The notes beneath the pieces were generated by a model, which was not told the DNA's origin, made no database searches, and saw only the letters and a list, made by a program, of their open reading frames with translations. A stretch of DNA of 62,811 bases, counting the filler, from an uncultured bacterium (GTDB taxonomy: Bacteria > CAZDME01 > JAYEMH01), in NCBI GenBank assembly GCA_964506785.1. It is 11 parts of 11 records of this genome, joined end to end, with 100 filler letters (N's around TTAATTAATTAA, not from the genome) between each part and the next. Parts side by side here need not be neighbours in the genome. Positions count along the whole stretch, not along the records: positions 58,065 to 62,811 come from CAZDME010000078.1; 10 more parts are not named here. One strand, written 5' to 3'. The position numbers were made by a program, and so were the translations under genes. Positions 29,646 through 62,811 of this stretch are shown in pieces. Numbering within the stretch: position 1 is the first letter of the stretch; every line of letters starts with the position of its first letter.

Positions 29646-29720
29646 CTCATAGCTGATGGCTGATAGTTAAGAAGAAAACTAAGAGCAAAGAGCGATGAGC
29701 GAAGAGCCAAGAGCTATGAA
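29643..29720. repeat. Inverted arms of degenerate 7-bp tandem repeats with no gene between
   Basis: CTCATAG CTGATGG CTGATAG then CTAAGAG CAAAGAG CGATGAG CGAAGAG CCAAGAG CTATGAA. Confidence 0.85.
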
Positions 29721-31551: not shown

Positions 31552-33441
31552 ATGTTCAACATTAACGAAAAGGATTTAAAAATAATTTTGGTACCTAAAG
31601 AAGAAAGAGAAAAAGAGGGAAAAATCATCTGGGAAATTACAAATCGGCCAGGAATCAAGGTGAGTCGAATCCTAAGAAAAAATCGAAAATTCTATTTGTC
31701 CCAAGAATCTGACCTTAAAGTTAAGGTCAAGGTAACGCCGTACCTTTTCAGGAAAAAAGGAAAAGTCGGGATAGCGATTAGATTTGATGATGCTGAGAAG
31801 TTGAAAGACTGGTTTATTTCTCCATCGAAGGTACCCTGCGAATATTCTATTTATAAAAACAAGGTGTTATTTCTGTCTTCACATTTTAAGGGTGATGCTA
31901 AGGCAGATGAATTTGTCCAGATGAAGAATGAAAGCATCCGGGTGAATCTTGAAAAGTATCCTTATTTTAATTTGACGTACAGAATAGAAGACCCAGAAGT
32001 CCAGACAATAGAGGTAGTTGCCGGAATAGATTTTGATAAAGATGGTAAAGTTAACGAATATATCCGGGGTATATACCCAAGGCCAGCCTCGGTATTTTGG
32101 GATAACTTTCGTTATAATTTCTATAGTAAAGTAAAGGCAAAATTCCCGGATAAAAAGTATTATGAGTTGGTAAAACTGGAGCTTTATCCCCATAAACTGT
32201 GGAAGGTTGACTGCAGTACGCCAAAAAGAAAGGGTAAATACAGATTTTGGATTAAAGGTTTAAAATTCTCCAATTATTCCCCAAGGGAATTTTTTGAAAG
32301 TTTTAAAGATGCTTTAGATGTGGATTTAAATTCAGAAGAGGAGATTAAAAACTGGTCGGTGGAAAGAAAAGGTAAAATTCGCTTAGAGCTATCCAGGAAA
32401 GTTAATAAAATAAATCTTAGGCAGTTTCCGATGATTGAATTGGATTGTAAGATTAAAGACCCCGAGCTTCAAAAAATCGATTTTATCCTTGGTTTAGATT
32501 TTGATGGCGATGCGATAGCCGATAAAGATATTTTTCTTGATTACCTTGTTACCTCTAAAGAATGGGGTAAATTTCAGTTCGACGCTTATGGTTTGGTAAA
32601 GGAGGTTTATCCAGCTGAGAAGGAATACAACTTAATAAAGATAGCATTAGGGTTAAGTGAACAAAAGATAAAAAGGCCAAAGGAGGGGTATCCGTCTTAT
32701 TTCAAAAGATTAAGAGTTTTTTCTTCTTCTTTGGTTTCTACTGAGGAGGCTATTTTCGATAGGCCGGTGTTTGCTATAGATAAAGAAAGATTCCGGTTGA
32801 AGGCAAAATTTAAGGGTAAAGCGAATATAGAAGATTTACGGTTTGAGAGGACTTTATTTTTAGAAGGAGGGGAACATTATTTAAATAAACTCGAAGATGG
32901 TAGTTTTAAAGTGGACTGGGTGATAGTTGAGCCAAGGGACGGAAAAGATAAAAAAGAAAATAGGAATGAGCCAAAAATCACCTTTAGAAGGGTGAATTTG
33001 ACTAAGTATCAAGTGAAGGTGAAAGGGGCAAAAAAACCGTTTTGGTTGGTATTTAGTGAGAGTTTTCATGATGACTGGAAGCTATACAGCAAACAGAAAA
33101 CAGAGAACAGAAAACAGCAAGCAGAAGAGATTGCAGCCGAATATCCAAATTGGGGGGTGAAAGAAGCTAAATATAAATGGGGATTTTCTCCCGGGGATAT
33201 TAAATATCTATTTGGCGAGCCGTTAGATACGGAACACCAATTAGTTAATTTTTATGCCAATGCCTGGTGGATAGATCCAGAGGCCTTGAATTTGCCGGAA
33301 GATTTTAACCTGGTTGTCTTTTTCCGGCCCCAGTCACTTTTTTGCCTGGGCTTATTAACATCAGGTCTTACTCTTGGCGTTTGTCTGCTCTATTTACTAT
33401 GGGGTTGGAGAAAGAAAAAAAATAATGAATCATTGGTATAA
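31552..33441 (+). CDS. Membrane-anchored extracytoplasmic protein, probably the C-terminal part of a larger GT-C-associated protein
   Basis: Two DFDxD-containing repeats; PFWLVFSESFHDDW and HQLVNFYANAWWI; C-terminal TM followed by basic tail. Confidence 0.6.
   Translation: MFNINEKDLKIILVPKEEREKEGKIIWEITNRPGIKVSRILRKNRKFYLSQESDLKVKVKVTPYLFRKKGKVGIAIRFDDAEKLKDWFISPSKVPCEYSIYKNKVLFLSSHFKGDAKADEFVQMKNESIRVNLEKYPYFNLTYRIEDPEVQTIEVVAGIDFDKDGKVNEYIRGIYPRPASVFWDNFRYNFYSKVKAKFPDKKYYELVKLELYPHKLWKVDCSTPKRKGKYRFWIKGLKFSNYSPREFFESFKDALDVDLNSEEEIKNWSVERKGKIRLELSRKVNKINLRQFPMIELDCKIKDPELQKIDFILGLDFDGDAIADKDIFLDYLVTSKEWGKFQFDAYGLVKEVYPAEKEYNLIKIALGLSEQKIKRPKEGYPSYFKRLRVFSSSLVSTEEAIFDRPVFAIDKERFRLKAKFKGKANIEDLRFERTLFLEGGEHYLNKLEDGSFKVDWVIVEPRDGKDKKENRNEPKITFRRVNLTKYQVKVKGAKKPFWLVFSESFHDDWKLYSKQKTENRKQQAEEIAAEYPNWGVKEAKYKWGFSPGDIKYLFGEPLDTEHQLVNFYANAWWIDPEALNLPEDFNLVVFFRPQSLFCLGLLTSGLTLGVCLLYLLWGWRKKKNNESLV
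33084..33125 (+). repeat. Degenerate 7-bp tandem repeat inside a CDS (6 units, 42 bp)
   Basis: ATACAGC AAACAGA AAACAGA GAACAGA AAACAGC AAGCAGA. Confidence 0.65.
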
Positions 33442-54985: not shown

Positions 54986-57582
54986 AAAAATATTTAAGGA
55001 TAATTCTGGTTTTAGTAGCTTTTTTATCATTCAGTAATCCTGCCTTTAGCCGGCCGGTATTATGGAATTCATTTAAATACGGCGCCTTTAATTTTTACCA
55101 GCAGTTCAAATATTCATATGAAGTAAAAAAAAATAAAATTATTTTAAAACTCGCCAAAAGGATATTTGGCGCGGAATATCCTGATGTGGCAATTTTTTTG
55201 AATAATTTGGCGGTTCTTTATCAGGAAAAGAATAGATATGAAGAAGCTGAAGCTTTTTTAAAAGAGGCAATAGAGATAACCGAAAAAGCTTTTGGGGCAG
55301 ATGCGCCTAATCTAACTACCTACCTGGATAATCTGGCCGTGCTTTATTATGCTCAAAAAGAATATGACCAGGCTGAATCTTTTTTAAAGAGGGCAATAGC
55401 GATTATAGAGAAAAATTTTGGGGCGGATGATATTAGATTAGCGGCAAGTTTGAACAATTTGGCAGAGTACTATCGCAACCAGGGTGACTATGCCCGGGCC
55501 GAAAATCTTTATAAACGGGCGCTTGAAATTAAAAAAGAAGAATTTGGAGCGGATGATCCCAGGCTGGCGGTTTCATTGAATAATCTGGCGGTACTTTACT
55601 TAAAGCAGGGGCAGTACGGTAAAGCAGAGCTTTTATGTAAGCAAACTGTAGAGAAATATAAAAGAGTCGGCGAATCAGATTATCGGCAGGTGGCGCAATT
55701 CCTGAACAACCTGGCAGTACTTTATCAAGATCGAGGCAGATATGACGAAGCTGAACTTCTTTATCAACAAGCCATAGAGAAATATACGCAGGCCTCTAAG
55801 CCTGATTATCGTAATTTAGAAAAATCTCTCTATAATCTGGCAGTACTTTATCGAAAACAGGAAAAATACGATAGGGCGGAATTATTTTTTAGGAAGTTAC
55901 TATTTATAAAGGAGAAGATTTTTGGGCCGAGTCATCTTGAAGTAATGCAACCCTTGAATCTTCTGGCGGAAATTTACCTTAGGCAAAAAAAATATGCTGA
56001 AGCCCAAGTTCTGCAAGAGAGGTTGGTTGAAATGACAAAAGAGATTTACGGTTTAGATCGGCCCGAAGTGGTACAATCTTTAAACGCTTTAGCTGATTCT
56101 CATTTACGCCAGGGCGAATATGCTGAAGCCACCTCTCTTTACCGGCAGGCCATAGCCATCTATGAAAAAGCCAATAGGCCAGAAGATCTTGAATTGGCGC
56201 AGCTGTTAAGTAACCTGGCGGCAATTTACTTAGAGCAGGGTAACTATGCTGAAGCTATCCCTCTTTACCGGCAGGCCATAGCCATCTATGAGAAAGCCAA
56301 TAAATCAGAAAATCTTGAATTGGCGCAGCTGTTAAGCAGCCTGGCGGCAATTTACTTAAAGCAGGGTAACTATACTGAAGCCATCTCTTTTTGCGAGCAG
56401 GGCATAGCCATATATGAGAAAGCCAATAAATCAGAAGATTCTCAACTGGTACGGTTGTTAAATACCCTAGTAGACATTTACTTTGAGCAGGGTAACTATG
56501 CTGAAGCCATCCCTCTTTGCCGGCAAGGCATAGCTATCTATGAAAAGGCCGATAGGCCAGAAGATCTTGAATTGGCGCCGCTGTTAAGCAGCCTGGTAGA
56601 AATTCATTTCAAGCAGGGTAAAATTGCTGAGGCTGAGGTTGTGTTAAAACGCTTAATATCAGTAATGGGGGAAAGATATGGGAATGACTATTTCGCAATG
56701 GCCGGGGTTCTTAATCGCCTGGCGTATCTTTACTTCTCCCAGGATAAATATGCTGAAGCCGTCTCTCTTTGCCAGCAGGTCATAGCCATATATAAAAAAG
56801 CCAATAAACCAGAAGATCGTGAACTATTCCGGGCTCTAAACTTGATGGTACAGATTTATTTAATCCAGGGTAAATATGATGAAGCCCTTCTTTTTTGCCA
56901 GCAGGCTTTGGACATGCATGAAATAGCCGCCAGTCCAAAATATTTCCCAGAGGTGCAATTTCTAAAGCTAACTATAATTTCTTTAAAACAGGGAGGAAAT
57001 GAAGAAATTGAAGCGGCTATTAATCGGTTAACGGCTCTAGCAGGGAAAAATGATGGGCAAGGCTATTCTGGAATGATAGAACCTTTAACCAAGCTGGGGC
57101 AGCTTTACTTCCGTCAGGGCAAATATGATAAAGCAGAAATTTTTTGGAAAAAAGCACTATCAATAGCCAAAGATATCCCTGGATCAAATCATTTTATGGT
57201 AGAGCGATGTTCAATGGATCTAATTGAAATTTACCTTGCGCAAGGCAAAAAATCTGAAGCGGAATTTCTTCAAAAAAAACTATATAAACAAGTATTAGAA
57301 ACAATGGATAATCCTTACAAAATAAGCAATCATGGGCAACGACTAGAATTTTCGAAACTTATAGTTTCTTTGGTAAATTTTTACGCAGAACGGGGTGAAT
57401 ATGAAGAATCCTCCTTATTGGCTAAAAAGGCATTGGCACTAATGGAAAAAAAACTTGGATTAAACTATAATCAGCTAATTCAAGAGTTGGAAAATATTGT
57501 AGTGTTTTATGAGAAAGACGGGAATAAAAGTGAAGCGGAAAAAGTAAAAGAACGAATAAAAATAATCCGTTCAAACAACTGA
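54982..57582 (+). CDS. Secreted tetratricopeptide-repeat protein (42-aa kinesin-light-chain-type TPRs)
   Basis: Signal peptide; many LNNLAxLY..QG.Y..AE repeats at 42-aa period. Confidence 0.9.
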   Translation: MKKYLRIILVLVAFLSFSNPAFSRPVLWNSFKYGAFNFYQQFKYSYEVKKNKIILKLAKRIFGAEYPDVAIFLNNLAVLYQEKNRYEEAEAFLKEAIEITEKAFGADAPNLTTYLDNLAVLYYAQKEYDQAESFLKRAIAIIEKNFGADDIRLAASLNNLAEYYRNQGDYARAENLYKRALEIKKEEFGADDPRLAVSLNNLAVLYLKQGQYGKAELLCKQTVEKYKRVGESDYRQVAQFLNNLAVLYQDRGRYDEAELLYQQAIEKYTQASKPDYRNLEKSLYNLAVLYRKQEKYDRAELFFRKLLFIKEKIFGPSHLEVMQPLNLLAEIYLRQKKYAEAQVLQERLVEMTKEIYGLDRPEVVQSLNALADSHLRQGEYAEATSLYRQAIAIYEKANRPEDLELAQLLSNLAAIYLEQGNYAEAIPLYRQAIAIYEKANKSENLELAQLLSSLAAIYLKQGNYTEAISFCEQGIAIYEKANKSEDSQLVRLLNTLVDIYFEQGNYAEAIPLCRQGIAIYEKADRPEDLELAPLLSSLVEIHFKQGKIAEAEVVLKRLISVMGERYGNDYFAMAGVLNRLAYLYFSQDKYAEAVSLCQQVIAIYKKANKPEDRELFRALNLMVQIYLIQGKYDEALLFCQQALDMHEIAASPKYFPEVQFLKLTIISLKQGGNEEIEAAINRLTALAGKNDGQGYSGMIEPLTKLGQLYFRQGKYDKAEIFWKKALSIAKDIPGSNHFMVERCSMDLIEIYLAQGKKSEAEFLQKKLYKQVLETMDNPYKISNHGQRLEFSKLIVSLVNFYAERGEYEESSLLAKKALALMEKKLGLNYNQLIQELENIVVFYEKDGNKSEAEKVKERIKIIRSNN
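56110..56613 (+). repeat. 126-bp tandem DNA repeat (4 close copies, further diverged copies at 56740 and 56866)
   Basis: Units start CAGGG at 56110, 56236, 56362, 56488 with long identical stretches. Confidence 0.85.
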
Positions 57583-60936: not shown

Positions 60937-61770
60937 ATGGCAGGAAACGATAAAATAAATGAAATTCTAAATAGGGTAAGAGAAAAAAAGGAACGCCCGG
61001 TAAAGAAGTTTCGTTCTTCCCGGTTTACGGCAATAAAGGATTTTTTTAACCAATTCAAGGCTTCTTCCCAATTGACCTATATCGCCGACAAAACGGATGA
61101 AAGCGGTATTGACCCCCGGGTGGTTACCTATTATTCATCCGACTCGCCGATTTCGGAACAGTATCGGATTTTACGGACTCATATTTTTGTTTCACAGCCC
61201 GATAACCCGCCCAAAACCATTCTTTTAACCAGCTGCCATCGTCAGGAAGGGAAAACCCTGACGGCCGTCAATTTAGCCATTACCTTAGCCCAGGATTCCC
61301 ATAAAAAGGTTTTACTTATCGATGCCGATTTGAGAAAGGGAGAAATCAGTAAAATTCTGAATCTGTCCGAGGCGCCGGGTCTGGCTGAAGTATTAAAAGG
61401 CCAAGCGGAACTGGCAGAGGTTATTCAAGAGGGAAGGATTCCCGGGGTTTCGGCAATTGCCGCCGGAGCCAACCCGTTAAATCCTTCCGAACTTTTAGGC
61501 CAGGCGAAGATAAAAGAGAGCTTGAGACTGATAAAGGAAAGCTATGACCAGATAATTATCGATGCCCCGCCATTAATTCCGGTTACCGACGGCGCTCTTT
61601 TAGCCCCGTTGGTTGATGGGATAATCCTGGTTATCAAGGCGGAGGTTACCCGATTAGAAGTAGTTGAACACGCCCAATTTCTACTCAAACAGGCCAAGGG
61701 AAAACTCCTTGGCTATGTCCTCTCCAATGTCGAGTACCATATCCCCGAGTATATCCATAAGTATTTGTAG
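60937..61770 (+). CDS. CpsD/CapB-family tyrosine-protein kinase
   Basis: EQYRILRT, EGKT, LIDADLR, IIIDAPP, Tyr-containing C-terminus. Confidence 0.9.
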   Translation: MAGNDKINEILNRVREKKERPVKKFRSSRFTAIKDFFNQFKASSQLTYIADKTDESGIDPRVVTYYSSDSPISEQYRILRTHIFVSQPDNPPKTILLTSCHRQEGKTLTAVNLAITLAQDSHKKVLLIDADLRKGEISKILNLSEAPGLAEVLKGQAELAEVIQEGRIPGVSAIAAGANPLNPSELLGQAKIKESLRLIKESYDQIIIDAPPLIPVTDGALLAPLVDGIILVIKAEVTRLEVVEHAQFLLKQAKGKLLGYVLSNVEYHIPEYIHKYL

Positions 61771-61801
61771 ATATAAAAGAGTATAAAAGAATAAAGAAAA
61801 T

Positions 61802-61833
61802 TTGACAGGAGTATATTTGTATGGTATACTCCT
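61802..61833 (+). promoter_or_regulatory. Sigma70 promoter overlapped by a 9-bp inverted repeat
   Basis: TTGACA-17 nt-TATACT; AGGAGTATA-N9-TATACTCCT. Confidence 0.7.
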
Positions 61834-61902
61834 TTTTGATTTATTCTCTAAATGAATGTTATATAACAGCATATATGGAAATTAGAAGGAGGAGAGAAGT
61901 TG

Positions 61903-62082
61903 ATGAATAACAAGCTGATGACTACCAAAGAGCTGGCTGAATACATGCAGCTTAATCCCTTGACTGTTTACCGAAAGGTCAAGGAAGGCGAAATCCCTTA
62001 TATCCGGCTGGGTCGCTCCATTCGCTTCAAGAAAGAGCAGATTGATAAATGGCTGGAAGCAGAAACACAAGAAAATAGATAA
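61903..62082 (+). CDS. Excisionase-like helix-turn-helix (HTH_17) DNA-binding protein
   Basis: LMTTKELAEYMQL..TVYR....IPYIRLGRSIRF...IDKWL. Confidence 0.88.
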   Translation: MNNKLMTTKELAEYMQLNPLTVYRKVKEGEIPYIRLGRSIRFKKEQIDKWLEAETQENR

Positions 62083-62138
62083 AAGTGTCAAAGTATCATA
62101 GTGTCATCGCTCACTTTGTTCGCTAGTATCAAAGTTTG
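62082..62138 (+). repeat. Left arm of 8-bp tandem repeats with embedded TCGCTCACTTTGTTCGCT motif
   Basis: AAAGTGTC AAAGTATC ATAGTGTC A-[motif]-AGTATC AAAGTTTG. Confidence 0.88.
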
Positions 62139-62154
62139 ACAACGGGAGTGTACA

Positions 62155-62520
62155 GTGGCAGAAAAAGGCTATAGAAAACTAAAAGTCTGGCAGAAAGCTC
62201 ATAACTTGGCAGTTGAAATCTATCGGACTACAGAGAATTTTCCCAAAGAAGAACTATATGGGATTACTTCACAATTAAGAAGGGCTTCATTTTCTGTGCC
62301 TTTAAATATTGTTGAAGGACAGGCAAGCAGCAGCAAAAAAGAATTTATTAATTTTCTTAATATTGCTAACCGATCCTTAGTAGAGGCAGAATATTTATTA
62401 GAAACATGCGAGGAATTAAATTTTCTAAACAGGATAGATTATGAAAAGTTAGAACGTCTACGTTCTGAAGTTGGCATTATTTTAAATGCATTTGTTAAAT
62501 CTGTAAAAAGTAAACTCTGA
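62155..62520 (+). CDS. Four-helix-bundle protein (23S rRNA IVP-like family)
   Basis: YRKLKVWQKA, FPKEELYGITSQLRRASFSVPLNIVEG, EFINFLNIA.RSL.E. Confidence 0.92.
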   Translation: MAEKGYRKLKVWQKAHNLAVEIYRTTENFPKEELYGITSQLRRASFSVPLNIVEGQASSSKKEFINFLNIANRSLVEAEYLLETCEELNFLNRIDYEKLERLRSEVGIILNAFVKSVKSKL

Positions 62521-62566
62521 CACTCTGATACTCTGACACTTTGATACTTTGACACTATGAGACTTA
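62515..62566 (+). repeat. Right (inverted) arm of 8-bp tandem repeats
   Basis: CTCTGACA CTCTGATA CTCTGACA CTTTGATA CTTTGACA CTATGAGA CTTA. Confidence 0.9.
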
Positions 62567-62811
62567 GAAGGAAGCCAATATTAATTGGCATTAGCGGCGG
62601 GACCGGCTCAGGGAAAACCACCCTGGCCGAAACCCTGCAGGCAAAGATAGGCAAGGCAGATTGCCATATAATCAGCCAGGATAGTTATTATAAAGACAGA
62701 AGCCCGATGGAATTCTTAAATAGGGAAAAACTCAATTTTGACGAACCGGCCGCTTTTGACCTGTCTTTACTGATTGAACATTTAAAAAAGCTTAAGGCGG
62801 GTAAGGCCGTT
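62557..62811 (+). CDS. udk: Uridine kinase (3' end outside window)
   Basis: Manual translation ILIGISGGTGSGKTT...ISQDSYYKD...NFDEPAAFD. Confidence 0.9.
   Translation, partial: MRLRRKPILIGISGGTGSGKTTLAETLQAKIGKADCHIISQDSYYKDRSPMEFLNREKLNFDEPAAFDLSLLIEHLKKLKAGKAV

Follow-up and report, generated by a model that had tools for sequence, protein, structure and literature searches.

A probable intervening-sequence-type cassette, a PF05635 gene between inverted octamer arrays, at an operon junction of an uncultured bacterium

We analysed a 62,811-nt stretch of DNA (the window) from an uncultured bacterium (GTDB lineage Bacteria; CAZDME01; JAYEMH01; GenBank assembly GCA_964506785.1). Our results suggest that positions 62082-62569 of this window, located between a helix-turn-helix (HTH) gene and the uridine kinase gene udk, are very probably a cassette that has been inserted there and is inherited as one piece. 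The cassette would be of the intervening-sequence (IVS) type: a promoterless gene of the four-helix-bundle family PF05635 (TIGR02436), with its own ribosome-binding site, lying between 8-nt arrays that are reverse complements of each other. This packaging of gene plus arms is typical of the PF05635 family in many bacteria, and the gene and its arm unit are inherited together.

The genome under study, G000, is metagenome-assembled (1.38 Mb, 112 contigs, 42% GC, 91% complete). The window is a chain of its contigs, from C65 to C78, and the cassette lies near the end of C78. For comparison we used two family-level relatives, G001 (a sister genus) and G002; contig numbers refer to G000 unless another genome is named, and L-numbers are locus labels.

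Results

The cassette fills a junction that is empty in a sister genus

The first-pass annotation of this DNA had described a four-helix-bundle gene bracketed by a left array and a reverse-complement right array, with the stop codon of the gene (62518-62520) and the udk ATG (62557) both inside the right arm, and with an excisionase-like HTH gene directly upstream. All these coordinates hold, and the HTH gene matches HTH_17 / TIGR01764. The arms are built from the unit pair (AAAGTGTC)n / (GACACTTT)n and the whole cassette is ~488 nt long. On the left, the last base of the HTH stop codon TAA (62080-62082) is the first base of the first arm unit; after an interruption, AGTATCAAAGTTTGACAAC runs to 62143 and provides two further degenerate units. 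On the right, the array (62514-62564, period 8 and 6.4 copies in the TRF tandem-repeat search) contains not only the TGA of the cassette gene and the udk ATG (62557-62559), but also the first four udk codons. The best arm pairing joins 62084-62106 with 62534-62556, with 22 of 23 positions complementary.

In G001 the kinase, HTH and udk genes are contiguous and no cassette is present: the HTH stop and the udk start overlap as ATGA. The orthologous tyrosine-kinase gene beside HTH-udk is 67% identical between the two genomes, and the promoter-like motif of G000 is also found upstream of the HTH gene of G001. Compared to G001, G000 has ~490 extra bases exactly at the HTH-udk junction, where the HTH TAA abuts the first unit, the udk ATG lies within the last units and the ancestral ATG region has been lost. 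Since the sister genus carries the overlapping HTH and udk genes without a cassette, the junction in G000 is a filled site. For the same reason the HTH gene is a resident that stands outside the element, and a role for it in mobility is not supported: it is conserved and translationally coupled to udk in the cassette-free G001.

A second junction differs in the same way. Between rtcB and serS, G000 carries the C35 cassette and G001 (L176, contig C5) has a solo (TAGGTRR)4 array and a GC-rich hairpin, with no gene; in G002 the same junction reads N. Thus, the proposal that gene and arms are gained or lost together, to be examined by aligning orthologous HTH-udk intervals, is supported at two places. 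Some cassette sites are old, because L005 (G000:C30:11422-11809), a PF05635 pseudogene with an internal TGA, and L048 (G002:C10), an intact cassette whose downstream arm has ~12 units, lie directly after the same tRNA gene and have a CAGTAG-type heptamer in common.

We also looked for joint or circular forms of the element, as the first-pass annotation had advised. The filled form was bridged in two other metagenome runs, whose contigs span HTH, cassette and udk (X3, 61762-62798; X5, 61700-62547). Contigs of four DNA runs (four studies) over 61700-62811 contained no cross-cassette joint and no circle; note that contigs drop rare variants, so absence is not implied. The X3 variant of udk carries 8 differences within 82 nt (62683-62764), and none is listed inside the cassette (62082-62569) for either bridging contig.

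PF05635 genes are concentrated between inverted arms in the genome

Enrichment of four-helix-bundle genes between inverted arms had been put forward as the genome-wide check of the cassette idea, and it proved strong. In our flank test, each of 1423 greedy open reading frames (ORFs; >=50 aa) of G000 received the score of the best ungapped inverted match between the 115 nt around its start and the 115 nt around its stop (mean 8.2, sd 1.75, 99th percentile 13). Four of the six PF05635 matches in G000 came out near the top: C78 with a score of 25 (rank 2), C36 with 19 (rank 4), C35 with 18 (rank 5) and C37 with 15 (rank 6-8), which has a hypergeometric P of 6.1e-9. The other two were unremarkable, with scores of 10 (C30, a broken gene) and 8 (C4). 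Ranks 1 and 3 were taken by two Y1 (IS200/RAYT-type) transposase genes, L175 (G000:C23:7146-7799) and L174 (G000:C1:11031-11723), respectively. These rank high because palindromic hairpins flank them, a known arrangement that served as a built-in positive control. The unit of the arms differs at each PF05635 locus of G000 (TAGCGTA, GGTTRAG, AATTACA and others).

With a strict seed search, 21 inverted pairs were found at 150-1500 nt in G000, and the C78 arms were the sole pair of 7/8-mer arrays among them. The array finder used throughout, TRF, listed 218 period-7/8 arrays in the genome, 151 of them mostly outside ORFs (an earlier strict detector, with a mismatch score of -3, was too harsh; it found 74 arrays and was dropped). 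Four array pairs had gaps of 425-670 nt and only that of C78 is a cassette; the C18 pair (425-nt gap), considered as another, was rejected, as it encloses a tRNA and an acylphosphatase-like ORF. Arrays of G000 are richer in G than in C on the sense strand, with a PF05635 gene near or not (94 vs 40, from 134 informative co-directional junctions). Within the window, other heptamer arrays occupy gene spacers at 782-843, 29681-29714 and 33086-33126, with units TCTGTCT, AAGAGCG and ACAGAAA.

Inverted arms are widespread in the family and follow the protein

To describe the family beyond G000 we pooled 84 PF05635 loci, 37 from G000, G001, G002 and 14 unrelated genomes and 47 from named public genomes. 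The public loci were drawn from 80 returned for the window protein (the other 33, partial matches or with cut flanks, were excluded), and the frameshifted C7 copy of G001, a fragment interrupted by stops and two short fragments from G019 were kept out of the set of 37. Protein identity in the pool ranges from 26% to 99%, so this is not one clonal family. Inverted arms, defined by an inverted-match score >=14, were present in 53 of the 84 loci, in many phyla; the enrichment holds across phyla as well as within G000. The period of the unit is 7 in 44 of the 53 armed loci, 8 in 5, 9 in 2 and 6 in 2, which makes the octamer of C78 a minority form. The arms adjoin the gene: left arms end a median of 23 nt before the start codon and right arms begin a median of 6 nt past the stop.

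Of 47 informative loci, 39 have an upstream arm with more G than C on the sense strand, a polarity that, in arms and solo arrays alike, may reflect the general purine richness of sense strands. Units with a stop codon are also in excess, in 37 of 53 loci on the sense strand (shuffled 30.4 ± 2.9) and in 30 of 53 on the other (20.1 ± 3.0). This excess is real and may mean only that spacers stay closed. In samples of 20-40 kb each from 11 genomes with and 10 without PF05635, median array density was 12 vs 3 per 40 kb (Mann-Whitney P=0.12), a difference that is suggestive only; some sampled contigs of the first group carry a PF05635 gene. Stem-loops of the UNCG class (2/84 sense, 2 antisense, 1.6 shuffled) and of the GNRA class (7/84 sense, 8 antisense, 5.5 shuffled) are no general feature of the surroundings of the 84 loci.

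Gene and unit travel together. Among protein pairs with at least 60% identity, 9 of 11 have a unit distance of at most 1; the proportion is 26% at 50-60% identity and 1-3% below 50% (permutation P 0.004). L051, from a metagenome-assembled genome (MAG) of the Nitrospiraceae, encodes a protein 65% identical to the window protein and has arms of the same octamer. Pairs from different phyla also have units in common, for example a Terriglobia and a Desulfobacteraceae locus with 64% identity and the unit AGCTNTC. Moreover, L028 (G001:C6) and L042 (G001:C7:7837-8156) lie at separate sites, encode 90% identical proteins and have GTCCATA-type arms in common; a frameshift splits the C7 copy, and the pair looks like a recent duplication followed by decay.

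The arm family of C78 also occurs as gene-less hairpins

The left arm of the cassette had been matched to the minus strand of 2490-2438, on another contig and in the same orientation relative to transcription, with an interruption given as 18 nt. The match itself stands (62082-62134 vs the minus strand of 2438-2490, 46/53, ungapped), and so do the contig (C65) and the orientation: the arm comes first when the C65 site is read in the direction of its two neighbours, both on the minus strand. The length of the interruption has to be corrected to 19 nt. The C65 site carries the same arm family without a gene. It is one of three such hairpins, C65 2395-2490, C21 6813-6910 and C30 2895-3013, which have an identical 38-nt core with a 6-bp stem capped by UUCG and differ in the number of arm units. 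In the gene-bearing copy the core has diverged and does not pair, and the gene begins right past the last bases of the core.

The same arm family is found without the core in hairpins on C5 and C3 and in solo arrays on C2, C37, C43 and C46 (14 units). The predicted RNA fold of the C65 copy has -36.7 kcal/mol (z -4.35). The 38-nt core differs from the palindromes of the two Y1 transposase genes in G000. In G002, the epimerase gene orthologous to that of the C65 site has no octamers upstream, a weak comparison as the upstream neighbour differs.

The cassette protein is an IVS protein with a predicted fold like that of Avd

The cassette ORF matches PF05635 with 126.2 bits (E 7.6e-37, cut-off 33.8), covering positions 1-105 of 106, and TIGR02436 with 122.1 bits (cut-off 24). 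Its AlphaFold model (pLDDT 95.6) is predicted to consist of four long helices. In Foldseek comparisons, the model resembled XCC0516 (2gsc; TM 0.93, rmsd 1.1 Å) and BT_0352 (2rld; TM 0.81); both PDB entries hold five chains, and phmmer matched the sequence to 2gsc with an E of 2.5e-17. Within its own family of genomes the closest match to the window protein has <=43% identity, with no close paralogue. Bacteroides thetaiotaomicron is another carrier of the family.

The fold shared with Avd, the accessory protein of diversity-generating retroelements (DGRs), had been stated for the family by the first reading and is borne out by the predicted model, with TM 0.79 to 4dwl and 0.79-0.81 to 4dwl and the DGR ribonucleoprotein entries (8ub7), at 13-15% identity. 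The Avd profiles scored under their cut-offs, Pfam bAvd PF22296 with 31.3 bits (cut-off 40) and NCBIfam NF033474 with 37 bits (cut-off 80), and no RVT_1 reverse transcriptase was found in the 91%-complete G000. On these grounds we rejected Avd as the identity of the protein.

Features of the locus and its surroundings

The features of the locus and of its gene-less copy within the window are collected in Table 1. On the + strand, no promoter-like or terminator-like site was found between the HTH promoter and udk. Neither a recombinase nor a transposase was found in or beside the cassette, whose sole ORF is the PF05635 gene; this does not show movement without a transposase. The hexamer GGAAGC occurs at 62055-62060 and again at 62570-62575, with a single GAAGCC in G001, in one distant inter-genus comparison. 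At the three gene-less copies no clear target-site duplication was seen. Elsewhere in the window (56119-56621), a 126-nt unit stands in tandem in four copies (81% matches) inside a coding region, probably a repeat-protein gene unrelated to the cassette.

Table 1. Positions of the cassette, its parts and its neighbours along the window
Feature	Position	Strand	Remarks
Promoter-like site of the host operon	61802..61830	+	TTGACA, 17 nt spacer, TATACT, TG before the -10; score 11/12; context, outside the cassette
Resident HTH_17 / TIGR01764 excisionase-family DNA-binding gene	61903..62082	+	upstream neighbour; profile matches
Left arm	62082..62105	+	three 8-nt units: AAAGTGTC, AAAGTATC, ATAGTGTC
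19-nt interruption of the left arm	62106..62124	+	UUCG-capped mini-hairpin of the gene-less copies in a diverged form that does not pair
Inner part of the left end	62125..62143	+	AGTATCAAAG then TTTGACAAC; matches the end of the 38-nt core of the gene-less copies (…GTGTCAAAGCAAC)
Shine-Dalgarno GGGAG	62144..62148	+	before the cassette gene
PF05635 / TIGR02436 four-helix-bundle gene	62155..62520	+	GTG start, TGA stop, 121 aa
Right arm	62514..62569	+	seven units ACTYTGAY, reverse complement of the left units
Uridine kinase gene udk, 5' part	62557..62811	+	downstream neighbour, runs off the contig end; start codon now supplied by the arm
Gene-less hairpin, same octamer family, contig C65	2395..2490	-	arm, 38-nt core with GCTCAC-UUCG-GUGAGC mini-hairpin, inverted arm; between two minus-strand genes

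Discussion

How the arms may act

We tentatively favour a reading in which the arms act by RNA pairing with RNase III processing. Since no promoter-like or terminator-like site separates the HTH promoter from udk, the cassette would be transcribed from the promoter of the HTH-udk operon. In that transcript the arms would zip into a stem of ~22 bp or more, with the gene looped out, and RNase III would cut the stem as in the rRNA intervening sequences that carry a PF05635 gene. The cassette RNA would then part from the host RNA, and the element would be tolerated in an operon junction or in an rRNA helix with the host function kept. Arms made of tandem units can pair in several registers, and pairing would therefore survive the gain or loss of units. 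The predicted RNA fold of 62070-62580 (-119.1 kcal/mol, z -2.59, 1/100 shuffles as good) has the arm stem closing the gene, with 62534-62556 paired with 62084-62105, and an RNase III gene is present on contig C48. It is because of this fold, the RNase III gene and the cleavage described for the Coxiella rRNA element that a cassette insulated by an RNase III stem appears to us the best reading. A stem that loops out the gene was among the possibilities raised by the first-pass annotation; folding predicts it, and the pattern of arm mismatches does not speak for it.

Indeed, several observations weigh against this reading. Over the 53 armed loci there is no G·U excess among arm mismatches (70 on the sense RNA vs 64 on the antisense, P=0.67), and 197 of 331 mismatches are transversions. 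The G-over-C polarity of upstream arms also stands on this side, with its possible origin in general purine richness. Moreover, the mismatches are phased: 175 of 267 (65.5%) fall in the two most variable positions of the unit, where 53.7 ± 1.6% is expected (0/2000 permutations). A helix formed by such arms would therefore carry regularly spaced small internal loops, and such phasing is more suggestive of recognition units in series, or of a helix interrupted on purpose, than of a stem maintained by compensatory change. Stem formation would place the udk start, which has no Shine-Dalgarno, at the foot of the stem, a cost to udk expression that the reading leaves unaccounted for. In L050, which encodes the closest relative of the window protein (69% identity) and comes from a MAG labelled Nitrospirae, arrays of the same octamer family lie on either side of the gene (820-900 and 1255-1290) in direct orientation, and therefore no hairpin can form there. 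Of the pooled loci, 6/84 have direct arrays only and 25/84 score <14 in both orientations, some of them with a one-sided hairpin. At C4 both arms lie on one side of the gene, upstream of it and as a hairpin, which is why its flank score is 8. Finally, most 7/8-mer arrays of G000 are solo: an inverted partner lies within 700 nt in 20/217 tested, 16 of these 20 pairs have gaps of <=98 nt and are therefore gene-less hairpins, and the largest array families of the genome are without a PF05635 gene bearing matching arms.

Part of this evidence would be accommodated if each arm were a series of sites bound by the protein that the cassette encodes, a reading that we consider possible and at the same time doubtful. 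A PF05635 pentamer would read the 7/8-nt unit cognate to it, either on one strand alone or, by the regularly unpaired bases, on the interrupted arm-arm duplex, and pairing would be secondary. Such a module of protein plus arms would recognise itself, which might conceivably, and with the same doubt, serve autoregulation, RNA protection or the recruitment of host enzymes for copying. The unit is conserved much more strongly than neutrality would predict and goes with protein identity, although this co-variation is also expected from plain co-inheritance. The phased mismatches without a wobble signature fit recognition of a unit, and L050 has kept the unit and not its inverted orientation; the big array families without a cognate gene do not fit, and array density is not significantly higher where the family is present. 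As for the protein, its predicted fold is that of 2gsc, which like 2rld has five chains per entry, and that of Avd in DGR ribonucleoproteins (4dwl, 8ub7; TM ~0.8). A DGR structure shows one stem-loop held by all five protomers of the Avd pentamer, between which flipped-out bases occupy the crevices (bioRxiv 10.1101/2023.10.23.563531). However, our literature search turned up no report of binding by any PF05635 protein, and stem-loops like the one bound by Avd (UNCG/GNRA) are not enriched at the 84 loci. A broader form of the idea, which we hold to be rather unlikely, is that PF05635 proteins form rings that bind short tandem repeats sequence-specifically, the pentamer of each cassette reading its own 7- or 8-nt unit through the unpaired bases of the arm-arm helix or on a single-stranded arm, that gene plus arms propagate themselves, and that the orphan heptamer arrays (STRR type, see below) and gene-less hairpins in the spacers of many bacteria are their footprints or trans targets.

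Less probable, in our judgement, is that the arms are ends acting at the DNA level. They would fold back where the DNA is single-stranded or extruded as a cruciform, and a host enzyme that recognises structure would insert, excise or copy the cassette, the RNA stem being a by-product; the logic, equally unlikely here, would be comparable to that of integron attC hairpins or of the hairpin-dependent IS200/REP systems. The clean difference between filled and empty junction at the stop/start boundary suits it, and the three gene-less copies, with a 100% identical core and differing unit numbers, point to recent copying of DNA. The presence of one cassette lineage, protein and unit, in different phyla suits the reading too, and arm mismatches without strand bias agree with DNA no less than with anything else. 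This reading is confronted by the absence of a recombinase or transposase in or beside the cassette and by the two Y1 transposase genes of G000, which are flanked by their own, different palindromes. A single sequence-specific enzyme cannot serve all cassettes, given that the unit of each is different. Nor is there a clear target-site duplication at the gene-less copies, and the only candidate at the filled site is the 6-nt GGAAGC from a single distant comparison.

Two other explanations are very improbable. A small gene merely caught between two of the many 7/8-mer arrays of spacers would agree with the abundance of such arrays and with their polarity regardless of PF05635, but inverted arrays of the same unit at gene-sized spacing enclose PF05635 genes in G000, 53 of 84 loci elsewhere are armed, each with its own unit, and the unit follows the protein phylogeny. 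We see hardly any likelihood, too, that the protein is a DGR Avd factor or that the neighbouring HTH protein mobilises the cassette: the weak Avd matches, the Avd-like predicted fold and the excisionase family of the HTH gene invite the idea, but both scores are under their cut-offs, G000 has no RVT_1 at 91% completeness, and G001, which is free of the cassette, keeps a conserved HTH gene with its coupling to udk.

Comparison with known systems

The nearest known relative of this element is the ORF-bearing rRNA intervening sequence. In the 23S rRNA of Coxiella burnetii, terminal inverted repeats make up a stem around an S23p ORF, and tandem heptamers are located upstream of the ORF; the 5' cut by RNase III falls at the first heptamer and the heptamer copy number varies between strains (PMC4990558). 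Similar elements of Leptospira and Salmonella are cited in the same paper. S23p belongs to the PF05635 family, and the enclosing inverted repeats, the gene's own ribosome-binding site and the lack of a promoter are common to both systems; so is the size, 428-444 nt in Coxiella vs ~488 nt for C78. The C78 cassette differs in that it lies between protein-coding genes and not in an rRNA helix, and cleavage by RNase III is something we infer for it. It also has 8-nt units on both sides, whereas the heptamers of the Coxiella element, in what is available of that report, are on the 5' side only and the element is treated as peculiar to rRNA (PMC4990558). Thus, the cassette would work like an ORF-bearing rRNA IVS and carries a gene of the same family, and it fails the defining rRNA location; because it is located between the HTH gene and udk, we do not class it as one.

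Avd of the Bordetella phage BPP-1 (4dwl, 8ub7) has a four-helix bundle too, and solved relatives are pentameric; it binds a structured RNA stem-loop through flipped-out bases touching all five protomers (bioRxiv 10.1101/2023.10.23.563531). Unlike it, the cassette protein has 13-15% identity and sub-cut-off scores, and it comes without a reverse transcriptase in G000 and without template or variable repeats.

Tandem 7-nt units in spacers at many loci, as in the short tandemly repeated repetitive (STRR) type of cyanobacteria and the heptamers of Xanthomonas and Nostoc, recall the 218 period-7/8 arrays of G000. Heptamers are intergenic in Xanthomonas (GGGAATC) and Nostoc (GGGGAYT), and 70-75 convergent inverted pairs in Xanthomonas are able to form stem-loops (PMC4692102). 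The available part of that paper contains none of the terms '23S', 'S23' and 'four helix' and does not tie the heptamers to a gene family. There, one or a few units serve the whole genome, whereas here each cassette has its own unit around a PF05635 gene. Miniature transposable elements with inverted repeats (MITEs) and systems of repetitive extragenic palindromes (REP/RAYT) have short inverted-repeat ends as well, with gene-less copies dispersed beside a gene-bearing one. In our case neither fold nor domain of a transposase is present in the enclosed gene, and the arms are tandem, not palindromic (low direct-repeat scores) and specific to the cassette. A transposon or MITE with a transposase was therefore rejected as an identity, the sole ORF being PF05635 and the palindromes that flank Y1_Tnp genes being unrelated to the arms.

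Integron cassettes are promoterless single-gene modules recognised by structure; their attC hairpin lies 3' of the ORF and they are arrayed by intI/attI. Likewise, the RNase III sites between phage T7 early genes are stems at which polycistronic RNA is cut into separate messages. The C78 cassette is similar to the former as a promoterless single-gene module in which structure would matter over sequence for recognition, and to the latter in that stems between genes would split a polycistronic RNA. We rejected an integron cassette as its identity: the arms flank the ORF, the element is solitary in an operon with HTH and udk as neighbours, and there is no integrase, attI or array at the locus, although no search for intI was made across the genome.

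Meaning for the IVS-protein family

In full-text searches we found no paper that describes the general gene-plus-arms architecture; the heptamers of the Coxiella IVS, on the 5' side of one rRNA element, are the closest lead, and the paper on Xanthomonas and Nostoc heptamers was the only other relevant one. The IVS-protein family, found in many phyla, solved twice and related to Avd, and the 7-nt repeats of bacterial spacers have both been without an accepted function, and here they appear as parts of one unit. At the HTH-udk junction, where the genes are translationally coupled, a filled and an empty state can be cleanly compared. Read in this way, rRNA intervening sequences would be only one particular form of a cassette whose usual place is between the genes of operons. 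If true, the repeat-binding reading would give a function to both the IVS proteins and the bacterial heptamer repeats at once.

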